In this document: positions 62-59,785 of the stretch, in pieces | How positions within the stretch are numbered: position 1 is the stretch's first letter | Layout of the letters: each line of letters opens with the position of its first letter | NCBI GenBank assembly: GCA_031414535.1 | Contig: JANNVQ010000034.1 | Location: 1 to 64,000, forward strand | Reading direction: 5' to 3' | Origin: Gemmatimonas sp. | GTDB lineage: Bacteria; Gemmatimonadota; Gemmatimonadetes; Gemmatimonadales; Gemmatimonadaceae | Length of the DNA: 64,000 nt | Position numbers and translations under genes: made by a program | The notes under the pieces: generated by a model | The model's input: only the letters and a program-made list of their open reading frames with translations | The model's database searches: none | Told to the model about the DNA's origin: nothing

Positions 62-107
62 ACCACGGATGCCGGAAGCAGGGCGCTTCCGTCAGCCGTC
101 TTCCGTC
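62..107. repeat. Degenerate GACGGAW heptamer cluster forming an inverted pair
   Basis: ACGGATGCCGGAAGC...GCTTCCGTCAGCCGTCTTCCGTC; downstream of the sigma factor stop and next to hairpin TCGCCCG-ATCAC-CGGGCGA (117-135). Confidence 0.7.
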
Positions 108-153
108 CAGTCGTCATCGCCCGATCACCGGGCGAGCGATAACGGCTGCCTTC

Positions 154-1044
154 TTACGCCACGCCCCAAAAGCCAGCAAGCGACCGACCTTCCGGCGACG
201 TCCGCAGCTTATCAAACGCGCGCTCGCGAATCTGGCGGATACGCTCGCGCGTCACGCCCATCAGCGCGCCAATCTTCTCGAGGGTCATCGCCTCGGCCCC
301 TTCATCGAGGCCGTAGTACAGGTTCAGAATCTTGCGCTCGCGCGGTGTCAGATACTCGCGGAACACCTTGTTGATGCACTCGCGCATCAGCTTGAAGTCG
401 GTGTTGTCTTCAATCTCAATATGATCGGCGCCAGCAAAGCGCTCGCCGAGCGTAGATGCCTCGCGGTCCGAACGATCCACTGGTGCGTCGAGCGACACCT
501 CGGTGGACGACATGCTCTTTGCGGAGCGCACCTGCTCCGGAGTCTCATCGAGGAGACGGCCAATCTCTTGATCCGTGGGATCGCGCTTCAATACCTGCGC
601 CAGCACCGTCTCAGCGCGCGACAGGCGAATGAGCGCGGAGTTCTGATTCAGCGGGATGCGCACCGAGCGGGTTTGCTCGGCCAGTGCCTTCAATACGGCT
701 TGGCGCACCCACCACACGGCGTACGAAATGAACTTCACGCCTTGGTCAGGGTCGAACTTGCGTACGGCCTTCAGCAAACCTTCGTTGCCGATGGCGACGA
801 GCTCGGAGAGATCGAGTCCGTGGCCCTGATACTTCTTCACATAGGAGATGACGAAGCGGAGATTCGCGGTGACGAGGCGCTCGGCGGCAGCTTCATCACC
901 CTTTTGGGCGAGTCTCGCGAGGCGACGCTCTTCTGCAACATCAGTGATGAGGGGGAGCTTCTGGATGTCCTGCAGATACTGGTCGAAGGCGGACGAAGCG
1001 GACGAACGGAAGTAGCCTTTTCGTGGCTCAGAAGCGTGCTGCAT
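154..1044 (-). CDS. RNA polymerase sigma-70 factor, RpoD/SigA-like short form (no region 1.1)
   Basis: ANLRFVISYVKKY, GNEGLLKAVRKFDP...KFISYAVWWVRQA, region 4 TLEKIG...VTRERIRQI; ATG 1044 preferred over the ORF-track start at 1113. Confidence 0.92.
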   Translation of the reverse strand: MQHASEPRKGYFRSSASSAFDQYLQDIQKLPLITDVAEERRLARLAQKGDEAAAERLVTANLRFVISYVKKYQGHGLDLSELVAIGNEGLLKAVRKFDPDQGVKFISYAVWWVRQAVLKALAEQTRSVRIPLNQNSALIRLSRAETVLAQVLKRDPTDQEIGRLLDETPEQVRSAKSMSSTEVSLDAPVDRSDREASTLGERFAGADHIEIEDNTDFKLMRECINKVFREYLTPRERKILNLYYGLDEGAEAMTLEKIGALMGVTRERIRQIRERAFDKLRTSPEGRSLAGFWGVA

Positions 1045-1176
1045 ACCCACCCCAAACCTGCGTGTGAAGGAATTGGTGCCTTGGGGGCACCACCAATGAC
1101 ACAGACGGGACACCCGACGCGCGTTTGCAACGCACGGAACGAAAGGCTAGGGATGGGGATGCAAAACGGTCAACAC

Positions 1177-1191
1177 CCAAAAAACGTGCCA
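1177..1191 (-). promoter_or_regulatory. Candidate sigma-54 (-24/-12) promoter upstream of the sigma-70 gene
   Basis: Minus strand TGGCACG-TTTT-TTGG versus consensus TGGCACG-N4-TTGC; one mismatch at -12. Confidence 0.35.
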
Positions 1192-1219
1192 GCGGGTGAA
1201 TTTAGCGCCACAATCGCGC

Positions 1220-1244
1220 CATCTCGTTGCTAGGCAACGAGATG
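1220..1244. terminator. Perfect 11-bp inverted repeat downstream of aroB
   Basis: CATCTCGTTGC-TAG-GCAACGAGATG; no clear U-tract. Confidence 0.5.
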
Positions 1245-1251
1245 CGACGGC

Positions 1252-2373
1252 TCACAAATGTTGAAGCGTCTGGAGCACTTCGGCTTCTGGGACGGCGATT
1301 CCGTAGCCGTCTGCGGCGGCTGCCATCACGCCAATTGCGGAGGGGAGGGCGTATTCCACCACTCCGGCGCGCGTTTTCTTGTCAGTGCGCGTCGCAATGA
1401 CAATCTCCGCAGGATCCGCATTCTCGGGCAGTCGCACCGGAAGCCCCGCCGCATCGCACACAGTCGCGATGGTGTCGGCGAGACCTGGTGCGGCGATGCC
1501 GAGTCGTTCGGCGAGCGAGGCTTCCGCCACCATGCCGATTGCGACGGCATTTCCGTGCGGAACGCCGTAGCCAGTCACTTGCTCGACGGCGTGGCCAATC
1601 GTGTGCCCAAAGTTGAGAATCTTCCGTATGCCGCTCTCGCGCTCGTCCTGCGCCACGACGCCAACCTTGATCTCCACGGAGCGCTGCACGAGTCGCATCG
1701 CCGTCGCATCGTCAGTTTCGGCGGCGTCGAGAATTTCGCGCAGTGACGAGGCAATCCACGAGAAGTAGGCAGCGTCGGCAATGGCGCCGTGCTTGATGGC
1801 CTCGGCCAATCCCTGACGCAGATGCTGCGAGGGCAGGGTACGCAGCATCTGCGGATCGATGAGCACCAGCGACGGCTGATGAAATGCCCCGACGAGGTTC
1901 TTCCCGGCGACGGTGTCCACGCCGGTCTTCCCACCGATACTCGCGTCAATCATGGCGAGGAGAGACGTGGGCACTTGTACGAAGGGCACGCCGCGCAGAT
2001 ACGTCGCCGCTACGAAGCCCACGAGGTCGCCTGTCACACCGCCGCCGAGCGCGACGAGCACGGAGTCGCGGCGATGTCCAGCGGCAATCAACTGGTCGGT
2101 AAGAGTGCCCCAGGTGGCGCGCGTCTTGTGTTGCTCGCCCGGAGGGAAACTGAAGATGCCTGGCGCCACCGTGCCACCCACGGTGGCACCGAGCGCTATG
2201 CCGGAGGAGAGCACCGCCGCGAGCGCCTTCGAGGCGTAATGCTGGCCGACGGTTTGGTCCGCAATGATGGCGATACGCTTGCCCGGATGCAGCGCGGCAA
2301 TCCGCTCGCCGAGGGTGGCGATTGCCCCGGGAGCAATTTCGATGCTCGAGCCGTGAAGCGCGAGCGTGCTCAC
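1252..2373 (-). CDS. aroB: 3-dehydroquinate synthase
   Basis: GGGVTGDLVGFVAATYLRG, PTSLLAMIDASIGGKTG, LNFGHTIGHA. Confidence 0.96.
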   Translation of the reverse strand: MSTLALHGSSIEIAPGAIATLGERIAALHPGKRIAIIADQTVGQHYASKALAAVLSSGIALGATVGGTVAPGIFSFPPGEQHKTRATWGTLTDQLIAAGHRRDSVLVALGGGVTGDLVGFVAATYLRGVPFVQVPTSLLAMIDASIGGKTGVDTVAGKNLVGAFHQPSLVLIDPQMLRTLPSQHLRQGLAEAIKHGAIADAAYFSWIASSLREILDAAETDDATAMRLVQRSVEIKVGVVAQDERESGIRKILNFGHTIGHAVEQVTGYGVPHGNAVAIGMVAEASLAERLGIAAPGLADTIATVCDAAGLPVRLPENADPAEIVIATRTDKKTRAGVVEYALPSAIGVMAAAADGYGIAVPEAEVLQTLQHL

Positions 2374-2407
2374 TTGGCTCGTGCTACCAACTGCGTGACC
2401 CCGTGTG

Positions 2408-2959
2408 CTACCACGTGACTTCGCCGGCTCCGGCGCGCTTATTCGCCACGCGGGCGAGCACGAAGAGCAGGTCGCTTAGGCGATTCAGATACACAATCAC
2501 GATCTGTGGCACGTCCGTGTCGCGCTGCAGTGTGATGACTGCGCGCTCGGCGCGCCGGCAGACGGTACGGGCCACGTGCAGCGAGGCAGCCTTAGGCGTG
2601 CCGCCAGGCATGATGAAGGCCCGGAGCGGCTCGAGTTCCTGCTCACCATCATCAATGGCCTGTTCGATCTGGGCGATGCGCGCGTCGGAGATACGCGCCT
2701 TCTCCAACTGCTCCTTCATCTTCTCGAGGTCGGGCGTCGCGAGCATCGCGCCGAGGGCAAAGAGGTCGCGCTGTATGGGAGCCAGCACTTCATCAATACG
2801 CGGCATCATCTCCACGGAACGCGCCATGCCGATTACCGCATTGAGCTCGTCTACTTCGCCATAGGCGGCCACGCGCGGGTGGTCCTTCGCGACGCGTCCT
2901 CCACCGAAGAGTCCCGTGTCGCCCTGGTCGCCGGTCTTGGTATAGATCTTTAAGGTCAT
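2408..2959 (-). CDS. ATP:cob(I)alamin adenosyltransferase, PduO/MMAB type
   Basis: KIYTKTGDQGDT, AYGEVDELN, ARTVCRRAER, YLNRLSDLLF. Confidence 0.93.
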   Translation of the reverse strand: MTLKIYTKTGDQGDTGLFGGGRVAKDHPRVAAYGEVDELNAVIGMARSVEMMPRIDEVLAPIQRDLFALGAMLATPDLEKMKEQLEKARISDARIAQIEQAIDDGEQELEPLRAFIMPGGTPKAASLHVARTVCRRAERAVITLQRDTDVPQIVIVYLNRLSDLLFVLARVANKRAGAGEVTW

Positions 2960-2968
2960 CCGCGAAAT

Positions 2969-3976
2969 CTAGCCGTGCTGAGGGCGGGTGTCGGGGATGT
3001 CCACGGCCGAAATCGCGCGCGTCGGGCGGGTCGGTGGCTGATAGCTCTCGGGAAACAGCGCGGCGAGATGCTGCTGCAGGCGCTCGGGACTGCCCGGCGT
3101 GCCCTGTGACATGTTCCAGCGGTCCAAGGACTGTCCGAGTTTTGCCGCCGTGGGACGCAACTGCGGTTCCTTAGAGATGGCGCCACCAATGATGCCGCGC
3201 ACGCTTGTGTCGACGAGCGGAAGCAAGGTCGTGATATCGGGCGTCGGCGAAATCACAACTTCTTCGATTGCCGCGAGCGTCTCGTTCTCGGTGAACAGTG
3301 TCTTGAGCGCGAAGAGTTCAAAGAGCACCACGCCCATCGAGAACACGTCGGCACTCTTCTCCACGCGCTTGCCGAGCAGTTGCTCAGGAGCCATGTAATG
3401 CTTTTTGCCGAGCAGGATGGAGCGACTCTCTGCCGGGTCGAACATGGTACGCGCCTTTGCGATGCCGAAGTCGGCCAGCTTCACGTGGCCGTCCCAGGTG
3501 AGCATCACGTTGCCCGGCGACACATCTCGATGCACGATCTCGAGCCGCTCGCCTTCTTCGTCCACGTAATGGTGGGCAAAGTCTAAGGCACGGCAGATAC
3601 GGCTGGCGCAATACGCGGCGATGTCCGGCGGCAGAGGCTCTTTTCGCTTGCGATGCGTGTTTATGAGCGTCCGCAGCGTGATGCCCTTGATGAATTCCAT
3701 CGCGATGAATGGACCGCTGTCGGAGTTCCCGAGGTAATAGATCTGCACGATGTTGCCGTGCACGAGGTTGGCAGAGAGCTTGGCTTCGTCAATGAAGAGC
3801 TGCAGCCACTCCGGGTGCTCGGCGAACTTGTCGTGGATGATCTTCACCGCCATGCGCTTGGAGAAGCCAGAGGCACCGAGCTGCTCGGCTTCGTACACCG
3901 TCGCCATACCGCCTCGGGCCACCTCGCGGAGGAGGCGGAAGCGGGTCTCAGAAACGAGGTCTTTTCCAAGGGACAT
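2969..3976 (-). CDS. Hanks-type Ser/Thr protein kinase, stand-alone catalytic domain
   Basis: RGGMATVY, AVK, HRDVSPGN, DFG, YMAPE, DVFSMG. Confidence 0.92.
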   Translation of the reverse strand: MSLGKDLVSETRFRLLREVARGGMATVYEAEQLGASGFSKRMAVKIIHDKFAEHPEWLQLFIDEAKLSANLVHGNIVQIYYLGNSDSGPFIAMEFIKGITLRTLINTHRKRKEPLPPDIAAYCASRICRALDFAHHYVDEEGERLEIVHRDVSPGNVMLTWDGHVKLADFGIAKARTMFDPAESRSILLGKKHYMAPEQLLGKRVEKSADVFSMGVVLFELFALKTLFTENETLAAIEEVVISPTPDITTLLPLVDTSVRGIIGGAISKEPQLRPTAAKLGQSLDRWNMSQGTPGSPERLQQHLAALFPESYQPPTRPTRAISAVDIPDTRPQHG

Positions 3977-3988
3977 GTAGGCACCAGG

Positions 3989-4009
3989 GACGGATGACGG
4001 AAGACGGAA
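3989..4009. repeat. Tandem heptamer x3 (GACGGAT GACGGAA GACGGAA)
   Basis: Read directly; 12 nt upstream of the kinase ATG; abuts TAAGCT (4014-4009, minus strand). Confidence 0.9.
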
Positions 4010-4071
4010 GCTTAAAGGTGTCGCAAAAGAGGGCGTTGTGAAGAGGGTCGTCTCGGGGCGATTTTATATAG

Positions 4072-5091
4072 ATGGCTACCCACAACATCCGAGACATCAC
4101 GATCATCGGCGCCGGCCCTGCTGGGCTGTTTGCGCTCTTCTATGCTGGCATGCGCGGCGCGACTGCGCAAATCGTTGACGCGCTTCCGCAGCCTGGCGGA
4201 CAGCTTTCGGCACTCTACCCAGAAAAGTTCATCTTCGACGTGGCGGGGCATCCCAAGGTGCTCGCCAAAGATCTCGTTAGCGGCCTGATGCAGCAGGCTG
4301 GGCAGTTCAATCAGCCGATTCATTGCGCGCAGAACGTCGTCGGGCTGGAGGAAGAGGACGGCCACTTTGTGCTCGTCACCGAAACGGATCGCTTTCCGAC
4401 ACGCGCGGTCATTATCGCCGCGGGCATCGGCGCGTTCTCGCCGCGGCGCCTGCCGCAGGCGTGCGCGGAGCCTTGGTACGGCAAGGGTATTGACGACGTC
4501 GTCATGGACCCCAAGAAGTATGCCGGTAAGCGCGTCGTCATCGTCGGCGGTGGTGACTCAGCGTTCGACTGGGCGCACCAGCTCGAGGGCATCGCGACGG
4601 ACATCACGCTGGTGCATCGCTCCGACCGCTTCCGGGCACACCAAGCCACGGTGGATGCGGTGATGGCATCGGCAGCGGTGGGCAAGACGGCCATCCACAC
4701 CTTCCACGAAATCGCCGATGTGCAGGGCACCGACGTTGGGCTCACGCACATCGAGCTGAAGGACATCAAGGCCAAGACCACCAAGCGCGTGGATTGCGAT
4801 GCCGTTCTGCCCATGCTGGGGTACGTCTCCGATATGGGAGCGCTGACGAGTTGGGGTCTACAGATCGAGAAGGATGAGATTGTCGTGAACTCGACGATGG
4901 AGACTGGCAGGGCCGGCATCTGGGCGTCCGGCGACGTCAATACCTATCCCGGCAAGCTCAAGCTCATTGCGCTGGGATTCGCCGAGTCTGCCATCGCGGT
5001 GAATCAGGCCTACCACTGGATTTACCCAGACAAGAAGGTGAACCCCGGGCATTCGTCCAACCTCGCCGTGTTCGGGCAGAAGGACGACTGA
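4072..5091 (+). CDS. Ferredoxin-NADP+ reductase (TrxR-like, YumC type)
   Basis: GAGPAG, GGQLSALYPEKFIFDVAG, GGGDSA, YPGKLKLI, PGHSS; no CxxC. Confidence 0.88.
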   Translation: MATHNIRDITIIGAGPAGLFALFYAGMRGATAQIVDALPQPGGQLSALYPEKFIFDVAGHPKVLAKDLVSGLMQQAGQFNQPIHCAQNVVGLEEEDGHFVLVTETDRFPTRAVIIAAGIGAFSPRRLPQACAEPWYGKGIDDVVMDPKKYAGKRVVIVGGGDSAFDWAHQLEGIATDITLVHRSDRFRAHQATVDAVMASAAVGKTAIHTFHEIADVQGTDVGLTHIELKDIKAKTTKRVDCDAVLPMLGYVSDMGALTSWGLQIEKDEIVVNSTMETGRAGIWASGDVNTYPGKLKLIALGFAESAIAVNQAYHWIYPDKKVNPGHSSNLAVFGQKDD

Positions 5092-5109
5092 TTTCGTGAT
5101 GCTTCACTC

Positions 5110-7362: not shown

Positions 7363-7363
7363 G

Positions 7364-14702: not shown

Positions 14703-14709
14703 TTAAGTA

Positions 14710-16056: not shown

Positions 16057-16064
16057 GAGGCCAA

Positions 16065-17640: not shown

Positions 17641-17724
17641 AGAGGAAAAATAGCGCGGCACCAATAGGTGCGCATCCGTGTTTATGGTTTATCGCAGTGT
17701 TGCCCCCGCTAGATTCCATAGGAT

Positions 17725-23728: not shown

Positions 23729-23827
23729 GACTTGAGACGTGGGACGGGAGACTTGAGGTCGGACGGATGACGGATGACGGAAGCTAACACCAAGACGCAG
23801 TAGCGTCCGTCATCCGTCATCCGTCCG
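23729..23827. repeat. Composite heptamer locus: GACTTGA-like x4, then 27-bp inverted arms of (GACGGAW)3
   Basis: GACTTGA GACGTGG GACGGGA GACTTGA; arms 23760-23786 and 23801-23827 with 1 mismatch. Confidence 0.9.
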
Positions 23828-27514: not shown

Positions 27515-28453
27515 CTATTCGGGGAGCGCCCAAAAATCGCCGACGGCCACCCCACGTCCCTGTGCCCAGTCCAATGCGGCCACGCGTCGGCGACCGGCCG
27601 GATGCACGGTCTCCACGGCAACGGCCCCAGTGCCGCAGGCGACGATCATGCCCATCTCACCGACCTCGAGTACCTCACCGGCATCGCCGCGGCGGTCAGG
27701 CAGAACGCGCACGCCAAAGAGCCGCGTTTCCGTCTCACGGACGAGGCCCCAGGCGCCAGGACGGGGATCGAATGCACGAATCGCGCGCGAGACTTCCACT
27801 GCAGGCTTCCGGAAATCGAGGCGTGCCATGTCGCGGTCAATCTTGGTTGCGAACGTGACCAAGGATTCATCCTGCGGCTTCTCGGCGATGCCACCGATTT
27901 CAAACAGCGTGAGGTACTCGATGATTGCCGCTGCGCCGAGTTCGCTGAGCGCCTCGGTGAGTTCACCCGCCGTGATATCCTCGCGCAGGGACACGCGGAC
28001 TTCGTGCAACACCGGGCCGGCATCAAGCTTGAGCACCATGCGCTGAATACTGACGCCGGTTTCTCCGTCACCGGCGAGGATGGCGGCTTGGATGGGCGCG
28101 GCACCACGCCAGCGCGGCAATAGCGAGGCGTGGATGTTCACCGTGCCCTTCGGCGCGACGTCAATGACATCTTGGCGCAGGATGTGGCCGTAGGCCACCA
28201 CTACGGTGAGATCTGGCTCGTAGCTCTTGAGCTGAGCAAGAAATTCCTCGCCGCGCGGGCGCTCAGGCTGGAGCACGGGTATGCCTTCCTCGAGTGCAAC
28301 CTCCTTTACCGGCGGCGGCACCAGCGTCGAGCGCGAGCGCCCCTGCGGCCTATCCGGCTGCGTCACCACGCACACGACGTCGTGGCCTTCACCAATGAGC
28401 GCACGGAGCGCTGGTGTGGCAAAGTCAGGAGTGCCAAAGAAGGCTATGCGCAC
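27515..28453 (-). CDS. fmt: Methionyl-tRNA formyltransferase
   Basis: FFGTPDFA, TQPDRP, NIHASLLPRWRGAAPIQ; GTG 28453 chosen as start. Confidence 0.96.
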   Translation of the reverse strand: MRIAFFGTPDFATPALRALIGEGHDVVCVVTQPDRPQGRSRSTLVPPPVKEVALEEGIPVLQPERPRGEEFLAQLKSYEPDLTVVVAYGHILRQDVIDVAPKGTVNIHASLLPRWRGAAPIQAAILAGDGETGVSIQRMVLKLDAGPVLHEVRVSLREDITAGELTEALSELGAAAIIEYLTLFEIGGIAEKPQDESLVTFATKIDRDMARLDFRKPAVEVSRAIRAFDPRPGAWGLVRETETRLFGVRVLPDRRGDAGEVLEVGEMGMIVACGTGAVAVETVHPAGRRRVAALDWAQGRGVAVGDFWALPE

Positions 28454-28459: not shown

Positions 28460-28594
28460 GGACGGAAGACGGATGATGGAAGCTAAAAACAAAGGCGAGA
28501 GCATTCGCTCCCGCCTTTGAATCTAGGTGCTCTACATGCTGTCGTGGTGCTCTCCGCTGGCTGCCTTGCCGCTTCCGTCATCCGTCTTCCGTCC
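28460..28594. repeat. 24-bp inverted heptamer arms flanking the def stop and terminator
   Basis: GGACGGAAGACGGATGATGGAAGC (28460-28483) versus GCTTCCGTCATCCGTCTTCCGTCC (28571-28594); 1 mismatch. Confidence 0.9.
28485..28518 (-). terminator. Intrinsic terminator after def
   Basis: Minus strand AAAGGCGGGAGC-GAAT-GCTCTCGCCTTT then GTTTTT; the single mismatch is a G-U pair on this strand. Confidence 0.75.
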
Positions 28595-29134
28595 GGGTCG
28601 AGGCTCATCCGTATCCCCTGGCTTCAACACCCGGAGCAGCTCCGGATACTTCAGCTTCTCCTCATCCCATTCCTTCAGCGCCTTGCGGCGATTTAAGAAG
28701 CTGAGATGGTCAATGAACAGCTTGCCATCCAAATGGTCAATCTCGTGCTGGATGCACACGGCGAGGAGCTCGCGACCCTCAAGTTCAAACGGCTGGCCAT
28801 CGACGCCAATCGCGCGAACCTTTACGTAGGCGGAGCGCTCCACCCATCCGAAGATTTCTGGGATGGAGAGGCAGCCTTCTTCCCAGCGGATCTTGCCCTC
28901 GCGGGCAATGATCTCAGGGTTGATCAACGCGGCGGACACGTCACCGACCTCCACCACGCAGAGGCGTTCGGTGCGCCCAACTTGCGGCGCGGCGAGGCCC
29001 ACGCCGTCGGCGGCGCGCATGGTCTCGAACATGTTCGCCACGAGCGTGCGCAATTCGTCTGTCACCTCGATCACCGGTGTGGTGACCTGGCGCAGGACAT
29101 TCGCCCCGAGAATGGTAATCGGCAGAACGGCCAT
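28532..29134 (-). CDS. def: Peptide deformylase
   Basis: GVGLAAPQ, EGCLS, QHEIDH. Confidence 0.96.
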   Translation of the reverse strand: MAVLPITILGANVLRQVTTPVIEVTDELRTLVANMFETMRAADGVGLAAPQVGRTERLCVVEVGDVSAALINPEIIAREGKIRWEEGCLSIPEIFGWVERSAYVKVRAIGVDGQPFELEGRELLAVCIQHEIDHLDGKLFIDHLSFLNRRKALKEWDEEKLKYPELLRVLKPGDTDEPRPGRKTDDGSGKAASGEHHDSM

Positions 29135-29140: not shown

Positions 29141-29488
29141 TTACGAAGCGGCTGGTTCGCTGCCGCCCACAGAGGCGATGCGATTGCGAACGACAACGAG
29201 CTTGGACTCGGCGCTCTTCACCGTGATGTGATCGGAGAGCGACGGCGTGCCGACGGTGGTCTCCTTGATGTGCACCACTTCGCCCACAATGCCGCCCGCG
29301 GTAACGATCTGATCGCCCTTCTTCATCGCGAGGATGGCGGCTTCGTGCGCCTTCCGCTGCTTCTGCTGCGGACGGATCATCAGGAAGTAGAAGATCGCGA
29401 AGATGGCGCCGATCTGGAACAGAAACGCGGCGATGTTCGTGCTACCGGCGCCGGGGGCGGCAGTTTGGAGGAAGAGCGAGATGGGCAT
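29141..29488 (-). CDS. yajC: Preprotein translocase subunit YajC
   Basis: FYFLMIRPQQKQRK, KGDQIVTAGGIVG. Confidence 0.93.
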   Translation of the reverse strand: MPISLFLQTAAPGAGSTNIAAFLFQIGAIFAIFYFLMIRPQQKQRKAHEAAILAMKKGDQIVTAGGIVGEVVHIKETTVGTPSLSDHITVKSAESKLVVVRNRIASVGGSEPAAS

Positions 29489-29492
29489 TTTT

Positions 29493-29513
29493 GACGGATG
29501 ACGGATGACGGAT
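29493..29513. repeat. Tandem heptamer (GACGGAT)3
   Basis: Perfect triplet 4 nt upstream of the yajC ATG. Confidence 0.92.
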
Positions 29514-29538
29514 GCGAACTACTCGGGGAGAAATCTAA

Positions 29539-33540: not shown

Positions 33541-33657
33541 AGGACGGATGACGGATGACGGATGCCAAATGGCGTGGGATACTCTGGAAATCTAACGGCC
33601 GCCGAGGCATCTGTGCCCCGGCGGCCGTTGCAGCATCCGTCATCCGTCTTCCGTCCT
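33541..33657. repeat. 25-bp inverted heptamer arms flanking a GC-rich hairpin
   Basis: AGGACGGATGACGGATGACGGATGC (33541-33565) versus GCATCCGTCATCCGTCTTCCGTCCT (33633-33657); 1 mismatch. Confidence 0.9.
33594..33629 (-). terminator. 16-bp GC-rich hairpin, likely terminator or processing stem
   Basis: Minus strand AACGGCCGCCGGGGCA-CAGA-TGCCTCGGCGGCCGTT (one G-U); weak U-tract. Confidence 0.55.
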
Positions 33658-34750
33658 AGTTGACCCGTAGCGTCAAACTCGCCCTGAGCCCACTCACCTT
33701 CGTCCCCGAGCCGTCTGCTACCGAGTACAGGTTGCCGAAGCTGTAGCCAACTTGGGGGAAGAGGCCGACCGATCCGATCGGTACTCGCACGCGGAGGCCG
33801 AGATTAATCAGGTTGCCGGCCCGCGCACCGCCCACCTGCCACAGGCGCGTTTCCAAGTTGGGTTGCACGATGAACTCGCCAAATGGAATGCTCACCGCGC
33901 CCGAAAGGTTGACCACGTTTTCCGCGGGAGCCGCTGCGCCGAGGATTTCACCCTCGAGTCGGTACAGGTTCCAGCCGCTGATAAAGACATCCGCACCCTT
34001 CACGGGGAAGTTCCATCCCATGGTCGCAATCAAGCGGTCGCCGGTGCTGTACGTCGTCGTGTCCGCGAGGTCCTCGCCGAAGATCGAGTAGGTCACACCG
34101 AGCGAGAGCGCACCATCGCCAACGGGGCGATCGGCATTGAGCGACACACGATACTCGTCGGCGGGAGTGAATCGGAAATCGTTTGAGGCGATGGTGAAGG
34201 CAGCGAACTCCGTTGATTTACGCGCGCTGCCGCCGAGGCCAAGGTTCCAATTGCCCACCGGGCGCGCATAGGCCACGCCGCCGGTCAACGCGAGGCCGTT
34301 GCCCATCGAGGAGATCGGATAGTACAGGAAGTCGTTGCCGATTTGGCCGGCAGCTTCCTGCTGATCCTCGGGGACGGAGTACTGCCCCGTCGGGAGGTTG
34401 ATACCGACGGTCAGCAGGACGTTATCGGAGCCGATGCGGTAGTTGGCGCGGATTTGCGTGTCGGTGAGTCCACTGATCTCGCTGGTGGTCGAATCATCGG
34501 TCTTGACGCTCGATGACGCAAAAGCGGTCGAGACGTCCATCGAGAACTTTTCACCAAAGGGCAACAACAGCACCACGGGCAGCGCGAGTTGCGAGACCGA
34601 GCGCGACGCGGCGCCCGATCCGAAGGTGAGCGTCGTGAAAGTCGGCGCCGTCAGCACCGATGCGGTTTGATACCACTGCGCGGCCAATGGGCTAGCGGGC
34701 AACGCAGCGAACGAGACGGCGAGCAAGCAACGTCCGAGGGTAGACCGCAT
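33656..34750 (-). CDS. Hypothetical outer membrane beta-barrel protein
   Basis: Signal peptide (LAA-Q); alternating amphipathic strands rich in G/S/T and aromatics. Confidence 0.7.
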   Translation of the reverse strand: MRSTLGRCLLAVSFAALPASPLAAQWYQTASVLTAPTFTTLTFGSGAASRSVSQLALPVVLLLPFGEKFSMDVSTAFASSSVKTDDSTTSEISGLTDTQIRANYRIGSDNVLLTVGINLPTGQYSVPEDQQEAAGQIGNDFLYYPISSMGNGLALTGGVAYARPVGNWNLGLGGSARKSTEFAAFTIASNDFRFTPADEYRVSLNADRPVGDGALSLGVTYSIFGEDLADTTTYSTGDRLIATMGWNFPVKGADVFISGWNLYRLEGEILGAAAPAENVVNLSGAVSIPFGEFIVQPNLETRLWQVGGARAGNLINLGLRVRVPIGSVGLFPQVGYSFGNLYSVADGSGTKVSGLRASLTLRVN

Positions 34751-36102: not shown

Positions 36103-36951
36103 CTAGCGGTCGGGGTCCAGCATGTCTTCGAATCGGAGCCACTGTTTGTAAAAATACAGGTCTACATACCCAATGGTGCCGTTGCGGTTCTTGCGCACCA
36201 ACAGTTCCGTTGCGCCCTCCACACCGTAGCCCGGGGCGTACATCTCCTCGCGGTAGATAGCGAGGACAACATCGGCGTGCTGTTTGACCGAACCGAGCGC
36301 ACCAAAATCTTCCAAGGTCGGTCGCGAGTCTTGGCGCGTGCGCTCCCACTTTGGGAGCTGCGCCGTCACGAGCACCGTCACGTCCATGTCGAGCGCCGCA
36401 GACTTGAGCGCGCGCACAGCCCGCGCAAGTAATTCATCCTGCTGGCCCTCGCCAATTGCCAGGGCCTGCAGCGAATCAACGACAATCACTTGGCACGCCA
36501 GCTCCCTGATTCGCGAACGCATCGCGTCCAGAGACGCCGTGGGCAGGTGTTCCACCTTTGGTGAGCGGTCACGCAAACGCACGGCAGCCGCACCGACGGT
36601 CGCCCGCGTCAGCTCATCCAACTTGCCGCTCCGAAGGTCGTCCACGCGCACCCGGCCCTCGAGCGCCAGGGCACGCTCCATCACGCGTTCGGCCGTCATC
36701 TCCCCCGTGAGAAATGCTACCGATGTTCCCTCTTGCGCCATCCGGACTGCCATCGCCAATCCAAGCGCTGACTTCCCAGATCCCACATCCCCACCGAGCA
36801 CCACGAGATCGCCGCGGCGCAGTCCGCCACCCAGCGAGCGATCGATGCTCGGAAAGCCCGTGCGAACCGAGTCCGTGGACGGTTGACCGTCCGAGGCAAG
36901 GTCCACTCGCCGCATCACGCGGGATATCGGGGAAATGTCGTTGGGGCGCAC
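36103..36951 (-). CDS. DnaB-like helicase, C-terminal ATPase domain only
   Basis: TGFPSIDRSLGGG, GDVGSGKS, TGEM, VVDSLQ, QHADVV...R, KNRNG; no N-terminal domain; GAGG SD before GTG 36951. Confidence 0.85.
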   Translation of the reverse strand: MRPNDISPISRVMRRVDLASDGQPSTDSVRTGFPSIDRSLGGGLRRGDLVVLGGDVGSGKSALGLAMAVRMAQEGTSVAFLTGEMTAERVMERALALEGRVRVDDLRSGKLDELTRATVGAAAVRLRDRSPKVEHLPTASLDAMRSRIRELACQVIVVDSLQALAIGEGQQDELLARAVRALKSAALDMDVTVLVTAQLPKWERTRQDSRPTLEDFGALGSVKQHADVVLAIYREEMYAPGYGVEGATELLVRKNRNGTIGYVDLYFYKQWLRFEDMLDPDR

Positions 36952-41473: not shown

Positions 41474-41502
41474 AGCGCGCTTCAAAGGCGGTGCACGAGC
41501 GA

Positions 41503-42765: not shown

Positions 42766-42869
42766 GTCGGCTCCATTTAAGGACGCCAGAATGTGCGGGG
42801 CGGGACATCTCGCGGCAATAGGCTTGGCTAAGCAAACAGAGGATGAGTAGGCCTCGTTAGATTTGACAG

Positions 42870-44546: not shown

Positions 44547-44586
44547 CCGGCGCCTGAGCAGCGCCGGGCGCAACGGTTACGGCGCC
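44537..44586. terminator. Long GC hairpin between convergent prfC and the hybrid kinase
   Basis: GGCGCCGTAACCG (44537-44549) / CGGTTACGGCGCC (44574-44586) perfect 13 bp plus an inner stem; no U-tract. Confidence 0.55.
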
Positions 44587-44604
44587 GAGGCTGCCCGGTG
44601 ACAT

Positions 44605-49576: not shown

Positions 49577-49645
49577 ACCGCACGATGCGCTGGAACCGAG
49601 GCCCCGACCACGAGGCGTTTCCCTTAAGACACCTGAGGAAATTCC

Positions 49646-53028: not shown

Positions 53029-53050
53029 CCAGCAGTATCACGTTCGTGAC

Positions 53051-54361
53051 CTAGGGCGTTTCTCGCAAGGGCAGCGAGGAGGCCGGCAACTCCGATGCCG
53101 GATTGCCGCCGCTCGCAATCGTCACGGCGCCGAGCTGCGCAGTTACGTTTAGCAAGGTCTTGAACAGGTCGGGCAGCAGGTCAAGTGCGATGAGCACGCC
53201 GATGGCCTCCGCCGGAATACCGAGCGCACCAAAAAAGGGCGCAACGACGAACAGGCTCGCGCTCGGAATGCCCGGCACGCTGAAGCTCATCAATACTGAC
53301 GTGACCGCCAGCGATATCACGGTGATGTTGCTGAGCTCGACGCCGTAAAGCTTTGCCGCGAACAGCGCCATCACCACCCAGCTCACGGCTTGGTTGAGAC
53401 GGAACGTCGAGACGGCCAAGGGCAATCCGAAGCTCGACGCCGTGGAAGGCAACGCGAGGCTACGGTCCGCGGCCACCACCATCGCTGGCAGTGCGGCCAT
53501 GGATGAGCGCGTGGTGAGTGCCACCACCTGCGCGGGTAGCATGGCTCGCGCAAACGTTGAGACGCGCGTGCGGCTGAGCAGGGCCACGGCTAAGTACACG
53601 AGCAGCGTCGCGGCAATCAAGAAGGCCGCATACACCACAACATAGAAAGCCACCGCGCCCACCACTGCCGTGCCGATGCGCGCCGCCACGACGAAGGCGA
53701 GCGAGAGTACGCCGAGCGGCGTGGCTTTGAGAATCCACTCGATGAGCACTGTGACAGCAGACGCGACGGCGCGGAATACGCCAACGACGGCTTCGCGCTT
53801 GACGGCTTCCACGCGTCCGAGCGCGAGACCAAAGGCGATGGTAAACACCACCAGTGGAAGCATCGCACCACTCGCAGCAGCAGCGATGGGATTCACGGGC
53901 ACGAGGCTCACGAGCCAATCGGTAAACGAAGGCAACGTGGGTAGCGCGACGCCCGTGCCGACGTCGGCGCGCAAGGACGCGGCGGCCGTTGCGTCAATGG
54001 TGATGAGGTCAAACACTGCCGGCGCCGTGAGCGCCGTGAAGGTCGCAACGAGGCTGAGCAAGAGCAAAAAAACACCGAGCGAACGGATGCCGAGCCGCCC
54101 CATGCTGCGAGCATCCGTGTCGGCCACGGCGACAATGAGCGAAGCCACCACGAGGGGAATCACCGTCATCCGGATGGCGGCGACCCAAATGAGGCCAGCC
54201 GGCTCAATCCAGCGAATCAGCGTTGGGGCCGCGTCACTAGACGACGCGACGATCCCCGCACCTGCCCCCACCACGAGCGCTGCCACTGCGAGGAGAACGG
54301 GGCGTGAAAGCGCCAATGGAATCCAAGTTGATGGAGACGTGAAGCTACACTTTCCTCGCAA
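53051..54361 (-). CDS. Dicarboxylate/amino acid:cation symporter (DAACS)
   Basis: IRMTVIPLV, VPVNP, TRSSMAALP, KTLLNV; start may be TTG 54316. Confidence 0.88.
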   Translation of the reverse strand: MRGKCSFTSPSTWIPLALSRPVLLAVAALVVGAGAGIVASSSDAAPTLIRWIEPAGLIWVAAIRMTVIPLVVASLIVAVADTDARSMGRLGIRSLGVFLLLLSLVATFTALTAPAVFDLITIDATAAASLRADVGTGVALPTLPSFTDWLVSLVPVNPIAAAASGAMLPLVVFTIAFGLALGRVEAVKREAVVGVFRAVASAVTVLIEWILKATPLGVLSLAFVVAARIGTAVVGAVAFYVVVYAAFLIAATLLVYLAVALLSRTRVSTFARAMLPAQVVALTTRSSMAALPAMVVAADRSLALPSTASSFGLPLAVSTFRLNQAVSWVVMALFAAKLYGVELSNITVISLAVTSVLMSFSVPGIPSASLFVVAPFFGALGIPAEAIGVLIALDLLPDLFKTLLNVTAQLGAVTIASGGNPASELPASSLPLRETP

Positions 54362-54875
54362 AGCGTCGAATCATCCAACGTGGAGCCAAGTACAGCACTG
54401 CGCCACCCAGCGCGAACACCGTCGCGATGACGAGCGGGAGTACGCCGCCGAAGGTGTAACTCATCGCGAGGACGAAACCTAGAATGTACTCTGCCCGGTA
54501 AATCGGGAATGCTAGGGCCAGTAGGGGAATCAGTTGCACCTGCACGTTCGGAATCTCAGAGTATCCAAGCGAGAAGGCGGTAGCGAGCACCGCACCGAAC
54601 ACCACCGCTCCGACTGCGCCCATCAAGGCCGCCTTCGCAGACGTGCGTCCCTTGGCGATGCGCGACTGTGTGTTGCCGAGGGCAAGCCACGTCAGCAGCG
54701 GCAACGTGAGCCCGCCCCACCAATTGGAGATGCTCGGCATGTCATCACGAGCCATGAAACTGTGAGACGGGACGCCGTCGTGCAGTTGCTGCCAAACCAG
54801 GAGAGACCAAACGGTCAGGGCGACTGCAATCGAGAGCAAGGCACGCGAGCGGTTCGGCATTCGCAATCTCAGCAA
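54345..54875 (-). CDS. Hypothetical membrane protein
   Basis: Several hydrophobic segments; GVPSHSF...MPSISNWWG. Confidence 0.7.
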   Translation of the reverse strand: MLRLRMPNRSRALLSIAVALTVWSLLVWQQLHDGVPSHSFMARDDMPSISNWWGGLTLPLLTWLALGNTQSRIAKGRTSAKAALMGAVGAVVFGAVLATAFSLGYSEIPNVQVQLIPLLALAFPIYRAEYILGFVLAMSYTFGGVLPLVIATVFALGGAVLYLAPRWMIRRFARKV

Positions 54876-54927
54876 GGGGAGCGAGCGATGCGCTCACTAC
54901 GCCGCAACGTGCCTGCGGTTTCTCAGT

Positions 54928-56214
54928 TCAGCCGCGCGTATCAACCACCGCGATCTCCCGCGCACCCTTCCGCAGGAGCATCCAGCGCCCTCGCACCGCA
55001 TCAGACGCCGGCACATGCGTGGCCTCAGCGCCGAGCTTCGCGCCATTCACCGAAACCGCACCTTGCTGCACGAGCTTGCGCGCCGCGGTCTTAGAAAGCG
55101 CGAACGCCTGAGCGAGGACCTCCACCACATCCACTCCTTCAGCTGCGGGCGCGAGGCGCACCGACGGCATCTCCGCCGCCAACATCGCAAACACTTCGTC
55201 GCTGAGCGCATGGGCCTCAGCCTTTTTGTCGAATACCGTGCGTGAAACAGTCTCAGCCAGCTCAGCCGCCGCCGCGCCGTGAATCAACGAGGTGACCTCA
55301 CGCGCCAAGCGCTTTTGCGCCCCCCGCTCGTGCGCCGCGGCAGTGTGCGCCGCCTCGATCTCGGCAATCTCTGATTGACCGAGCAGCGTGAACGTCCGCA
55401 GCAGACGCCCCACATCTGCGTCTTCGGCATTGATCCAAAACTGATAGAACTTGTACACGCTCGTCAGCCGCGCATCGAGGTACACCGCGCCCGCTTCCGT
55501 TTTCCCGAACTTCTTGCCCTGCGCGTCCGTCAGCAGCGGAAACGTCAGCCCGTGCGCCTCGCCACGCTGCGTGCGGCGCACCAATTCGGTGCCGGCCGTG
55601 ATGTTGCCCCACTGATCGCTGCCACCCAACTGCAGCGTCACGCCATCGTGCTCGTGCAAGCGCGAGAAATCGTACGCCTGCAACAGCATGTAGCTGAACT
55701 CCGTGAAGCTGATGCCCGTCTCCATACGCGTCTTTACGGAGTCCTTCTGCATCATCCAGTTCACGGTGAAGTGCTTACCCGTGTCACGCAGGAACTCCAC
55801 CAGCCCAATCCCGCCCAGCCACTCGGAGTTGTTGCGCACGGCGAAGCGGCCAAGGGATTCGGCGCCGAGTGCGTTGGACGCCACTCGCTGAATCTGCTGC
55901 CAGATGAGCTCGGCGTTGTGCGCAATCTCCTCAGTGGAGCGCATCGGCCGCTCCTCGCTCTTGCCCGAGGGGTCACCGATCATCGCCGTGCCACCGCCCA
56001 CGAGCGCGACGGCTCGGTGGCCGGCGCGCGCGAGGCGCACCAGCCCCATCAGCGACACGAGGTTGCCCACGTGCAGGCTCTCCGCCGTGGGATCAAAGCC
56101 GCAGTAGCCGGTGACCGGACCCTTGGCGAGATGAGCTTCGCAGCCCTCGGTCTCTTGGTGTAACAGACCGCGCCAACGGAGTTCAGTGTGCAGGGAGCTG
56201 GGGAGCGTCGTCAT
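54928..56214 (-). CDS. tyrS: Tyrosine--tRNA ligase
   Basis: YCGFDPTAESLHVGN, YMLLQAYDF, GGSDQWGN, KFGKT, S4 domain. Confidence 0.97.
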   Translation of the reverse strand: MTTLPSSLHTELRWRGLLHQETEGCEAHLAKGPVTGYCGFDPTAESLHVGNLVSLMGLVRLARAGHRAVALVGGGTAMIGDPSGKSEERPMRSTEEIAHNAELIWQQIQRVASNALGAESLGRFAVRNNSEWLGGIGLVEFLRDTGKHFTVNWMMQKDSVKTRMETGISFTEFSYMLLQAYDFSRLHEHDGVTLQLGGSDQWGNITAGTELVRRTQRGEAHGLTFPLLTDAQGKKFGKTEAGAVYLDARLTSVYKFYQFWINAEDADVGRLLRTFTLLGQSEIAEIEAAHTAAAHERGAQKRLAREVTSLIHGAAAAELAETVSRTVFDKKAEAHALSDEVFAMLAAEMPSVRLAPAAEGVDVVEVLAQAFALSKTAARKLVQQGAVSVNGAKLGAEATHVPASDAVRGRWMLLRKGAREIAVVDTRG

Positions 56215-56266
56215 GCCGCCAATTTACGGGTCGCGGGAGGGGAAGTCACTCCACTAGCTTTCCCGC

Positions 56267-58381
56267 GTGCTCTCCAAGTACCCACGGCTTCGTTTCTACC
56301 TTCCACGCCTCGCGCTCGCTGTCGGCGGGCTGGGCGTCGTTTTCGCCTTGGTCTTCGCGTCTTGGTGGACTTGGTTCCTCTGCTCGGACGAGACCTGCCC
56401 GAGCATTGAGCAGTTCGTAGACTACAAACCCTCCGAGCCGGCCCGGCTCTACGCCGTCGACGGCCGCTTCATCGGCGAAATCGGCCTCGAGCGCCGCTCG
56501 GTGGTCACGCTCGACCAGATCCCGCGCCACGTGGCGGACGCCTTCGTCATCACCGAAGACAAGCGATACTACCAGCACTCGGGTGTGGACTACTTCCGCG
56601 TGTTGGGCTCCGTGATCGCCAATGCGCGCGCGATGGGTTTCGCCGAAGGCTTCTCGACCATCACCATGCAGCTCGCGCGCAATATCTTCCCGGCGCAGTT
56701 GCCTTCGCGTTCCAAAGCGGGCTCGGCCTACAACAACCTCGTGCGCAAATTCCGCGAGGCCAAGGTGGCGCGTCAGCTCGAGGGAGCGCTTTCAAAAGAC
56801 AAGATTCTTGAGCTGTACCTGAACCAGATTTCACTCGGCGCCGGCGCCTATGGTGTTGAGGCCGCCTCGCAGCGCTACTTCGGGCGTCCGGTCAGCGAAA
56901 TCACGGTTGCCGAAGGCGCCATGCTCGCGGCCCTGCCCAAGGCGCCGTCGCGCTACAACCCGCGCCGCTTCCCCGACCGTGCCATTCAGCGCCGTAACAC
57001 GGTGCTCGAGTTAATGCGCCGCGCTGGTGCGCTTTCGGATGCCGACGCTAGCGTGGCTAAGGCCTATCCCTTGCGCCTGAACCGTGCAGCGCGCGGAGCC
57101 GGCGATCCCGCGCCGTACTTTGTGGAGTGGGTGCGCGCCGAACTCGAGCGTCGCTTTGGCAAGCAGGTGTACGAGAGCGGTCTGCGTGTGCTGACTACGC
57201 TCGACCTCGACATGCAGGGCGCCGCTGAACGCGCGGTCGAACGCCAACTGCGCGCCATCGAGGCCAACACATTCGGAAACTTCCCGCACCAGACCTACGA
57301 GGCCTATTTGGCCCGCGCCGCGAGCGGGGACGTGGTGGGCAGCGGTGCCAACTCGCCCTACCTACAGGCCAGCTTCGTCGCCTTGGACCCGCGCAGCGGC
57401 GGCGTGCGCGCGCTCGTTGGCGGCCGTGATTTTGACGATTCGAAGTTCGATCGCGCGGTGCGAGCCACCCGTCAGCCTGGCTCGACCTTCAAGCCGATTG
57501 TGTACGCAACAGCGGTACGCTCGGGCCGATCGCCGGCCTACCTCATTGACGATGAGCCCATCGAGGTGCCGCAGCTCGATGGCACCCTCTGGACGCCGCA
57601 GAACTACGACATGAAGTTCGAAGGTCGTGTGACAATGCGCCGCGCCGTGATGTTCTCACGTAACCTCCCTGCTATTCGCCTCACAATGGAAATCGGCGAG
57701 GGCGCAGTGGTAGACATGGCCAAGAACTTCGGCATCACCACACGCGTGCCGCCCTACCCGTCCATCGCGTTGGGCTCGGCGGACGTGTATCCCATCGAGA
57801 TGGTCGCTGCTTACTCCACCTTCGCAAACCTTGGCTGGCGCGTGCCGCCGAATCCAATCGTGCGCGTGGAGACGCTCGACGGCCGCAGGCTCTACGAGGC
57901 CGATCCGCAGCGTATCCAGGTGCTCTCGCGCGAGGAAGCCTGGATCATGACGGACATGCTCCGCGACGTCATCCGCAGCGGCTCCGGCGCCCGCGTGTGG
58001 AACCAGGAAAACTTCCGCGTGCCTGCGGGCGGGAAGACCGGCACCACCAACGATTACACGGACGTCTGGTTCGTGGGATTCACGGCAGACCTCGTCGCTG
58101 GCGTATGGATTGGCTTCGACCAGCCGAAGGAGATCATGGCCAATGCACAGGGCGGGCGCCTCGCGGCACCGGCTTGGGCGGCCTTCATGCGCGAGGTCTA
58201 CGAGCGGAAGCCAACGCCACCTGATTGGCCCCGCCCCTCGGGCATCCTTGCCGTCCCGATCGATCCCGCCACCGGCCTGCGCGCCGGCCTCGGATGTATC
58301 TCGGACGCGATACGAACCGAGTACTTCATCGCGGGAACCGAACCCACTCAGGAATGCCCGCGACGTGGGATCGTCCCCTGA
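56267..58381 (+). CDS. Class A penicillin-binding protein (PBP1A family)
   Basis: EDKRYY.H, GFSTITMQ, RKFRE, STFK, SRN, KTG. Confidence 0.94.
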   Translation: MLSKYPRLRFYLPRLALAVGGLGVVFALVFASWWTWFLCSDETCPSIEQFVDYKPSEPARLYAVDGRFIGEIGLERRSVVTLDQIPRHVADAFVITEDKRYYQHSGVDYFRVLGSVIANARAMGFAEGFSTITMQLARNIFPAQLPSRSKAGSAYNNLVRKFREAKVARQLEGALSKDKILELYLNQISLGAGAYGVEAASQRYFGRPVSEITVAEGAMLAALPKAPSRYNPRRFPDRAIQRRNTVLELMRRAGALSDADASVAKAYPLRLNRAARGAGDPAPYFVEWVRAELERRFGKQVYESGLRVLTTLDLDMQGAAERAVERQLRAIEANTFGNFPHQTYEAYLARAASGDVVGSGANSPYLQASFVALDPRSGGVRALVGGRDFDDSKFDRAVRATRQPGSTFKPIVYATAVRSGRSPAYLIDDEPIEVPQLDGTLWTPQNYDMKFEGRVTMRRAVMFSRNLPAIRLTMEIGEGAVVDMAKNFGITTRVPPYPSIALGSADVYPIEMVAAYSTFANLGWRVPPNPIVRVETLDGRRLYEADPQRIQVLSREEAWIMTDMLRDVIRSGSGARVWNQENFRVPAGGKTGTTNDYTDVWFVGFTADLVAGVWIGFDQPKEIMANAQGGRLAAPAWAAFMREVYERKPTPPDWPRPSGILAVPIDPATGLRAGLGCISDAIRTEYFIAGTEPTQECPRRGIVP

Positions 58382-59730
58382 TGGCGGCGCGCGTCCGTTG
58401 GCACGCGCGCTGGGTGGTCCCGGTGGCATCGCCACCGATTGAGAATGGCTGCGTCATCACGGAAGCCGAGCGCATCGTCTGGGTCGGCGAGCGTGTGCAT
58501 GCGCCAGCTGGTGGGAGCGACGAGGAACTTGGAGACGCCTTCCTCACGCCGGGCTTGGTGAACGCACACACGCATCTGGGTCTCACCATGATGCGTGGCT
58601 TGCTCGGCGGACTGCCTTTCTTCACTTGGGTGCGCACGCTGACCGCGGCCTCCGCCACGCTCACTGACGCGGACCTCCTCGACGCCGCCTTGCTTGGCTT
58701 GGCCGAAGGCATCGCAGCAGGCACCACGACCTTTGCTGACACCGCGCCCAATGAGGCGGCGTTCAACGCCATGCGCCAGCTCGGCGTGCGTGGCATCGCG
58801 TATCGCGAGGTGTTCGGGCCTGATCCCGAGGTGGCGGAGAAGCATCTCGCGCTTCTTGCAGACCAGATCAACTCCATGCTGCAACGCGCCACGGACTTGG
58901 TCCATGTGGGCGTGTCACCGCATGCGCCCTACTCGGTCAGCGATGCGCTCTTCGCGGCCGTCGCCCGTCTCGCAGCGGAGCGCCGCATCCCAGTGGCCGT
59001 GCACATCGCGGAAAGTGCGGAGGAGCAGCGCTTGGTGACGGAAGGTGAAGGCGACTACGCCAACTTCCTCCGCGGTCGTGGCATTGACGTGACGCCGCGT
59101 GGTTCGGAGCCGATGGCCATCATCGAGCGCGCCGATCTGCTCAAGCGCCACACGCTGCTGATTCACGCTGTGCGAGTGAGTGAGGGCGTGATTGCGCGCA
59201 TCGCCAGCGCCGGCTCTGGTGTGGCGCACTGCCCGGCGTCCAACGCCTGGTTCGGCCACGGCGTGGCCCCGCTCGCTGCCATGACCCAGGCGGGCGTACA
59301 GGTGGGGCTTGGCTCTGATTCAATGGCCTCCAACGATCGCATGGATCTGCTCGAGGAGGCGCGCTTGGCCGCGTTCGCCCAGCGCACCATCAGCGGGCGG
59401 CACGACCTCATCACGGCGAAGCAGGCCTTCCGTCTCGCCACCCTCGGCGGTGCTGAGGCTTTAAACCTCGACGAGCAGATTGGTTCGCTGGAGGTGGGCA
59501 AGCAAGCGGACATCGCGGCCTTCGCGATGCATCCGCAGCATGGCCCGGTGACTGATCCGTATGCCGCCCTCGTTTTCGGTCCGCGTCCAACGACCACACG
59601 CGTGATTGTCGCTGGTACAGAGCTTTATCGGGATGGAGCAGTGAAAGGCTTCGACTCCGCAGTTTCAGCTCGTGTGCAGGCTACCGCCGAGCGACTTCAG
59701 CGGTGGCGCCGCGAACAACCTTCGGTTTAG
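58381..59730 (+). CDS. Amidohydrolase family (MtaD/AtzA-like deaminase)
   Basis: PGLVNAHTH, SPHAPYS, HIAES, HCPASN, GSDS, GKQADI; ATG overlaps the PBP TGA. Confidence 0.88.
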   Translation: MAARVRWHARWVVPVASPPIENGCVITEAERIVWVGERVHAPAGGSDEELGDAFLTPGLVNAHTHLGLTMMRGLLGGLPFFTWVRTLTAASATLTDADLLDAALLGLAEGIAAGTTTFADTAPNEAAFNAMRQLGVRGIAYREVFGPDPEVAEKHLALLADQINSMLQRATDLVHVGVSPHAPYSVSDALFAAVARLAAERRIPVAVHIAESAEEQRLVTEGEGDYANFLRGRGIDVTPRGSEPMAIIERADLLKRHTLLIHAVRVSEGVIARIASAGSGVAHCPASNAWFGHGVAPLAAMTQAGVQVGLGSDSMASNDRMDLLEEARLAAFAQRTISGRHDLITAKQAFRLATLGGAEALNLDEQIGSLEVGKQADIAAFAMHPQHGPVTDPYAALVFGPRPTTTRVIVAGTELYRDGAVKGFDSAVSARVQATAERLQRWRREQPSV

Positions 59731-59757
59731 GTTCAAAGGTCCGGATGACAGCTCCAC

Positions 59758-59785
59758 TCCCGTCATCCGTCATCCGTCTTCCGTC
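59758..59785. repeat. Tandem heptamer x4 (TCCCGTC ATCCGTC ATCCGTC TTCCGTC)
   Basis: Read directly; at the 5' end of ilvE. Confidence 0.9.

Follow-up and report, generated by a model that had tools for sequence, protein, structure and literature searches.

Dispersed heptamer arrays in Gemmatimonas: a repeat unit that tends to match the allele of a four-helix-bundle gene

In the genome of the bacterium Gemmatimonas sp. studied here, short tandem arrays of the heptamer GACGGAW are scattered mainly at the edges of genes. Across the genus, the heptamer that is repeated genome-wide tends to match the allele of a gene for a four-helix-bundle (4HB) protein located between hppA and ychF. The 4HB alleles group by the unit of their flanking arrays, hereafter called arms, in conflict with the host tree. 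Orthologous insertion sites, or slots, hold different units in different species, the unit being species-specific. The arrays themselves belong, as arms, to a dispersed family of non-coding repeats of the Xanthomonas GGGAATC/STRR kind, and there is about an even chance that this family is organized in a REP/RAYT-like manner, with a protein partner that sets the unit. In the literature examined, both the dispersed heptamer repeats and the intervening-sequence protein family have no assigned function, and the match between allele and unit suggests a testable origin for the former.

The window, that is, the whole 64-kb stretch of DNA that was analysed, is contig C34 of a 3.70 Mb genome (G000, 98% complete). 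The named relatives of one protein from this genome belong to the Gemmatimonadaceae. A first-pass annotation had located ten GACGGAW arrays in it, and all of them (10/10) lie where it had placed them (Table 1), those at 28461-28481 and 87-107 with one altered base each. The five distances to start codons that it gave are all correct. At lgt, the arm lies 35 nt from the start, with an array of an older unit in between; this GACKTGA-type unit is abundant in four close relatives. The gene names agree with NCBIfam and Pfam, except that the "beta-barrel gene" (33656-34750) has no family match. The proposal that the purine form marks 3' ends holds for polarity but not for position in two cases, as the arms of tsaD and def are not beyond the stop codon: the tsaD stop falls within its arm, and the def arm is in frame in the coding tail, 39-59 nt ahead of the stop, where it is translated as GRKTDDGS. 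It had been left unremarked that six of the ten arrays combine into three local inverted pairs, each array having its partner 22-91 nt away. These pairs fold at -44 to -76 kcal/mol, values calculated without a shuffle control. The arm of the kinase leader is also found in two of the five relatives compared, and the slot of the yajC leader keeps an equal spacing in close relatives, where it holds intact, decayed or other units. An Rfam search of the window returned 0 matches at gathering score. Elsewhere in the window, an HNH endonuclease gene (60843-61397, plus strand) gives IscB/Cas9d matches that are far below cut-off and limited to the HNH part, and a short DnaB_C/KaiC-like ATPase (36103-36906, minus strand) is devoid of the N-terminal helicase domain.

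Table 1. Heptamer arms and -10-like hexamers in the window (arms named by inverted pair where paired)
Feature	Position	Strand	Remark
Solo arm, purine form on minus strand	87..107	-	46 nt beyond stop of sigma-70 gene (154-1044, minus)
Solo arm, pyrimidine form in Ser/Thr kinase leader	3989..4009	+	Kinase start 3976, minus; distance 12 nt
Decayed array, GACKTGA-type unit	23729..23756	+	Between lgt start and GACGGAW arm
Left arm, inverted pair 1 (lgt leader)	23762..23782	+	
Right arm, pair 1	23805..23825	-	Spacer 22 nt; provides TGA stop of tsaD (23810-23812)
Left arm, inverted pair 2 (fmt leader)	28461..28481	+	GTG start at 28453 is 7 nt away
TAGATT, -10-like hexamer upstream of fmt (putative promoter element)	28520..28525	-	Seen in relatives with and without arms
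Right arm, pair 2	28573..28593	-	In frame, C-terminal tail of def (28532-29134)
Solo arm filling yajC leader	29493..29513	+	ATG start at 29488 is 4 nt away
TAGATT, -10-like hexamer upstream of yajC arm	29532..29537	-	
Left arm, inverted pair 3 (yebC leader)	33543..33563	+	13 nt from start codon
Right arm, pair 3	33635..33655	-	Immediately past TAG of 33656-34750 gene
Four-unit solo arm, pyrimidine form in ilvE leader	59758..59785	-	10 nt from TTG at 59796

Genome-wide, 320 arms were found with at most three mismatches to (GACGGAW)3; in 234 of them the number of units is exactly three. A single order-5 Markov genome of equal length yielded 0, so the arrays are not due to chance. The arm consensus is G-(GACGGAW)3-GC, and much variation is seen at the seventh base of the unit only. 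Gene calls were home-made, with 3104 genes kept and uncertain starts. With these calls, 285 of the 320 arms lie outside genes, as dispersed and mostly intergenic tandem 7-mers, whereas 35 lie inside, several of which correspond to start-call errors. The first-pass annotation had also proposed a strand rule, with the pyrimidine form on the sense strand ahead of starts and the purine form at 3' ends. The genome-wide scan upholds it: 176 arms (118 at stops, 58 at starts) abut a gene only in the claimed orientation and 5 only in the opposite one, the others having both orientations (17) or no gene end within 20 nt (87), or being inside called genes. The rule can be restated more simply: the purine strand runs from the flanking gene into the gap, at start or stop alike. 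It follows from the geometry of the pairs, in which the purine arm is on the left. Indeed, among pairs within 150 nt, 100 are purine-left and a single one is reverse, the latter being located between two purine-left pairs. Solo arms keep the polarity, in 13/17 convergent and 12/13 divergent gaps. Stop-facing arms are mostly within 10 nt of the stop (114/150, against 8% for a random intergenic base), and 14 called stops fall inside arms. Three other periodic families, GARGAGC, CACGAAGG and CACGGAGG, show pairing of this same orientation 10, 13 and 8 times, respectively, and the reverse never. It was also observed that in five genes, including G000:C32:3841-4521, the called start codon, itself uncertain, is inside a purine-form arm. 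Contigs C3, C6, C9, C36 and others of the same genome carry a distinct repeat, about 125 nt long, with GTTA/TAAC-type ends and a characteristic 14-mer counted 74 times; it resembles the attC sites of a large integron array. An integron integrase gene scoring over the TIGR02249 cut-off is found at C31:45625-46566.

Several simple origins of the pairs can be set aside. The two arms of a pair resemble each other no more than arms drawn at random do (7 identical pairs in 100, 5.5 expected), and the sequence between them often consists of host promoter or terminator DNA, with hairpins and -10-like boxes common to relatives without arms. Thus, the pairs do not represent simple co-insertions. Insertion of a perfect palindrome as a whole was rejected because, in two of three spacer classes, agreement between the variable bases of paired arms does not exceed that obtained after shuffling; in the shortest class it is borderline (p 0.05). 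No target-site duplication was detected, the flank repeats of the 100 pairs matching those of shuffled flanks. Finally, avoidance of upstream start codons was rejected as the sole cause of polarity, since the GACGGAA unit of genome G024 contains no start or stop triplet; its polarity is unchanged at the sites examined.

With respect to the RNA level, a TANNNT box lies just 5' of 31/68 start-abutting arms versus 13/125 stop-abutting arms (Fisher p 6e-8), and just 5' of all six leader arms in the window. Because of this box, the leader arms are probably transcribed. The hexamer TAGATT is the most enriched one ahead of arm-free starts, and the yajC junction carries TAGATT or TAGCTT in the relatives examined. 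Over the genome as a whole, TANNNT boxes peak 5-9 nt ahead of start codons (121 matches in 1433 leaders), and the sequence suggests that many mRNAs of this organism are leaderless. The starts that follow leader arms had been described as lacking an SD sequence. This lack is partly by construction: the arm occupies the SD window (SD motif in 1/68 leader-arm genes), and an SD-like motif precedes no more than 756/3024 other genes (about 25%). It had been further imagined that complementary 5' and 3' arms would close one transcript into a loop. The counts do not favor this idea: a trailer arm is present in 12/88 leader-arm genes versus 43/463 neighboring same-strand genes (p 0.24). A cis-acting RNA code in a conserved form is also unlikely, since the orthologue comparison showed junctions of varying content, empty in several relatives, with a unit that differs between species. 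At the def-fmt junction, for instance, the stop directly abuts the start in at least 6 of 29 relatives, and others have arms of different units.

Only five pairs have a spacer of 150-1500 nt, and one of them, on contig C27, encloses a 4HB gene, antisense, between hppA and ychF. The product matches TIGR02436 and PF05635 (Avd-like) and is similar to PDB 2GSC. The first-pass annotation had envisaged that the arrays bind a protein, and this gene provides a candidate partner, which would bind them. The second 4HB gene of the genome lies between GARGAGC arms (PF05635 matches of the 4HB genes have E values of 1e-27 and 7e-11), and the one GxxExxY (PDDEXK_3) gene found, G000:C24:46997-47368, lies between inverted arms of the octamer CACGGAGG. 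Inverted arms thus lie on both sides of all three genes, and the dispersed family that supplies them is a different one in each case. The CACGGAGG family has 43 arms and its sister family CACGAAGG has 39, no gene enclosed by the latter having been seen in this genome. A TIGR02436 match is present in 45/55 genomes of the genus, across which the 4HB gene keeps the hppA-ychF slot (42 loci inspected, from 41 genomes). The ychF leader carries a period-7 array, the unit of which differs by species. Slot arrays scoring at least 9 were found upstream at 24/28 loci and, in inverted form, downstream at only 12/28. Comparison of eight pairs of 4HB genes gives pN values of 0.03-0.17 versus pS values of 0.40-0.65, indicating purifying selection. 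No paper linking 4HB proteins to heptamer arms was found in the open-access literature, although the supplements of Rehm 2015 and MacGregor 2015 may list such neighbors.

A tree was built from the first 112 codons of 42 4HB rows, 31 of which fall into six unit groups, the 11 rows with other units being left ungrouped. This core tree requires 6 changes of unit label, for a minimum of 5 and a shuffled mean of 20.1, with 0 of 200 shuffles as low; the groups had been named after a first 4HB tree was seen, before the host tree. The GATGKRA group does not form a single clade (p-AU 0.037); resolution of the GACGGAW group is weak. The host tree (fmt, def and queA; 30 genomes) rejects as a clade each of the five groups tested (p-AU at most 3e-4). 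Two further observations concern the 4HB loci. In the G024 assembly, two different 4HB alleles (L075 and L076) are each beside ychF, which may reflect a strain mixture. In G017, G004 and G012, a second conserved 4HB slot (L072, L074 and L079), with longer, GGGAGAG-like purine/pyrimidine arms, lies between orthologues of two adjacent C41 genes; at this place in G000 there is no 4HB gene, but a GACGGAW arm is present.

How closely the genome follows its allele was assessed by counting six units only, with overlapping matches and the arms of the slot itself included. Twenty of 30 genomes have the unit of the slot allele as the commonest of the six (20,000 shuffles gave a mean of 5.2 and a maximum of 13); these genomes are kin rather than independent, and many are incomplete. 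At least five matches are observed in 21/30 cognate cells versus 11/150 other cells. Among close hosts that differ in allele, the contrasts G000/G012, G023/G068, G050/G011 and G055/G043 follow the allele, and G044/G009 does so by half. Five genomes with an assembled but empty hppA-ychF slot have 0, 0, 0, 0 and 4 matches over the six patterns. On the other side, the cognate unit is not on top in 10 of the 30 genomes. G017 and G023 contain 94 and 144 GACGGAW matches, yet the arms of their ychF slot are GACKTGA, and none of the 4HB loci inspected in them has GACGGAW arms. G042 and G056 show the same kind of mismatch for another unit, and G057 has 28 matches with no 4HB match. Moreover, gene and flanking arms are linked, so that their joint transfer does not show specificity of the protein. 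The genus nevertheless offers a natural allele series at one locus. Since each allele comes with its own unit, binding specificity and repeat turnover are directly testable by allele swap.

Where arms are found is constrained. It had been suggested that the arrays behave as a short mobile repeat with preferred sites, and this idea is supported: arms occupy a limited set of re-used slots, namely gene edges, leaders after a -10-like box and protein linkers. In G017, an array is present at 25/30 of the orthologous junctions that bear an arm versus 6/184 of the arm-free ones, in a sample of 320 kb from which five junctions with other arrays were left out. The corresponding figures for G070 are 7/27 and 0/120. 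Arms also occur in frame inside conserved proteins, including IleRS, MetH and aldehyde dehydrogenase, in both orientations. Seven such sites were compared with three to five relatives each. At the MetH site, three units are found in five genomes, with length changes of 0, 0, 0 and +3 nt in four relatives. The linker of aldehyde dehydrogenase holds three units in six genomes, with changes of -3 to +9 nt in five relatives. Site 1 of IleRS varies by +12 to +33 and contains other units in four of five relatives; two relatives have no array at site 2, which in others is longer by as much as 102 nt. At the DnaE2 site, an array is missing from one relative, and three have octamer families. From these comparisons, arms behave like units that are gained or exchanged at edges tolerant of them, and not like the ends of a fixed insert. 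Repeat DNA thus rewrites leaders, stop codons and linkers of essential proteins between close species.

Considering these properties, the preferred mechanism would be as follows. Through recombination in the conserved genes on either side, 4HB alleles would pass from one lineage to another. The 4HB pentamer would bind its own unit, in the form of single-stranded DNA or RNA, and together with repair enzymes of the host would promote the copying of arms into permissive slots and over older arms. Selection would retain only those placements that leave frames, promoters and initiation intact. The system would operate as RAYT-REP pairs do, its partner protein having no known catalytic activity; every step assigned to the 4HB protein is one that we infer. 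A more specific proposal is that 4HB is a sequence-specific writer-partner, such that a horizontally acquired hppA-ychF allele would reset the unit of the genome, overwriting arms in place, even in the essential ileS and metH, without a transposase or a reverse transcriptase of its own. This proposal is possible but doubtful. If true, it would provide one mechanism for the STRR, GGGAATC and TAACTGA repeats, as well as a function for PF05635.

Alternatively, the 4HB gene could be a passenger. Exchange of the slot among lineages would import arms of a new unit, which would then spread and replace older arms by host slippage and gene conversion alone. Allele-unit linkage, re-use of slots and length-neutral swaps are explained equally well in this manner, which also accommodates the large families without a cognate-armed 4HB gene (G017, G023 and G057) and the fact that units can be derived from one another by changing one or two bases. 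However, purifying selection on the 4HB gene, the presence of arms at all three small orphan genes found in G000 and the near-absence of the six units in the five empty-slot genomes would be left without explanation, and a passenger gene seems rather unlikely. The arms may also be imagined as a selected RNA code regulating core genes, with pyrimidine leaders for SD-less initiation and purine trailers, read by a protein (possibly 4HB) or through 5'-3' pairing. Position of leader arms after -10-like boxes (31/68) agrees with such a code, as do the higher coding score per codon of arm-flanked genes (median 0.40 vs 0.35), the capacity of complementary arms to pair (-36 kcal/mol) and the regulatory role proposed for TAACTGA in passages of MacGregor 2015 (PMC4679880). 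Still, bracketing of the same gene is without excess (p 0.24), orthologous junctions are empty in several relatives, protein linkers carry arms in both orientations and passages of Rehm 2015 (PMC4692102) report that no regulatory role was identified; overall, a code of this kind appears distinctly improbable. In a last model, a DGR- or telomerase-like reverse transcriptase would extend 3' ends at breaks with templated purine repeats. Such addition would produce exactly the purine-left, pyrimidine-right polarity, PF05635 resembles Avd according to a passage of PMC10053308, and the variable base of GACGGAW faces the only adenine of the other strand. Yet RVT_1 is found in 2/55 genomes of the genus and in none of G017, G023, G024 and G012, and the variable bases of other units are not confined to adenine-templated positions, which leaves this model with very little probability.

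Returning to the reading in which a protein partner sets the unit, comparison with known systems shows which features are shared. REP/REPIN-RAYT systems likewise comprise hundreds of short intergenic repeats, inverted doublets among them, and a partner gene of low copy number that has the repeat on either side; the REP unit is a short palindrome with a tetranucleotide foot. GACGGAW arms also form inverted doublets able to fold into a hairpin (100 pairs). Unlike REP, each arm is a direct tandem heptamer array without a palindrome. A RAYT partner was ruled out, as the search for a Y1_Tnp gene gave 0 candidates in the 98% complete G000 genome, a control search giving matches in 6/14. Unlike RAYT, the candidate partner is a four-helix bundle, the alleles of which conflict with the host tree. 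In ORF-bearing 23S rRNA intervening sequences, the stem is excised by RNase III. The 4HB protein is in the same family as the proteins of these sequences (PF05635/TIGR02436; XCC0516, PDB 2GSC) and as DGR Avd, but its gene is between hppA and ychF and not inside a 23S rRNA gene. As described in passages of the corresponding articles, Avd is a positively charged pentamer binding a specific RNA region (PMC6182149), and PF05635 is homologous to it (PMC10053308). In contrast with DGRs, the 4HB gene is not beside a reverse transcriptase, the RVT_1 gene of G000 being on another contig. The pairs resemble MITEs in being short and non-coding, with inverted ends and empty sites in relatives; they differ from them by the absence of target duplication, the many solo arms, the swaps at nearly constant length and the lack of a conserved interior (spacers of 2-150 nt, unrelated in the 25 examined). 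The GACGGAW family thus belongs to none of the REP-RAYT, MITE, rRNA intervening sequence and DGR classes.

Closer relatives are found among tandem heptamers, and the kinship with STRR-type repeats put forward in the first-pass annotation is borne out. According to passages of Rehm 2015 (PMC4692102), the G-rich strand of the Xanthomonas GGGAATC and Nostoc GGGGA(C/T)T heptamers is antisense where the repeats lie no more than 50 bp ahead of an ORF and sense where they lie no more than 50 bp from a stop, and many convergent pairs occur. GACGGAW arms are likewise dispersed tandem heptamers with equal polarity and convergent pairs. In contrast with those repeats, the GACGGAW unit has GG only, with no G-quadruplex-capable GGG tract, and the modal number of units is three instead of four; moreover, the same passages name neither a partner gene nor a unit turnover. 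The TAACTGA arrays of Beggiatoaceae, cyanobacteria and Bacteroidetes are located just ahead of SD-less start codons in a genome with about 25% SD use (passages of MacGregor 2015; PMC4679880), in both respects like the GACGGAW arrays, whereas inverted pairs are rare for TAACTGA according to these passages. By our own comparison, the reverse complement of TAACTGA, once rotated, reads GTTATCA and differs by a single base from the GGTATCA unit found in relatives. The terms "four helix" and "intervening sequence" have 0 occurrences in the main text of PMC4679880. The strand rule itself is already known, having been published for the Xanthomonas/Nostoc and Beggiatoa heptamers. Nothing was found in the open-access literature on in-place unit swaps or on the tracking of allele and unit at a fixed locus, and these two features are the new part that Gemmatimonas adds to the known heptamer systems.
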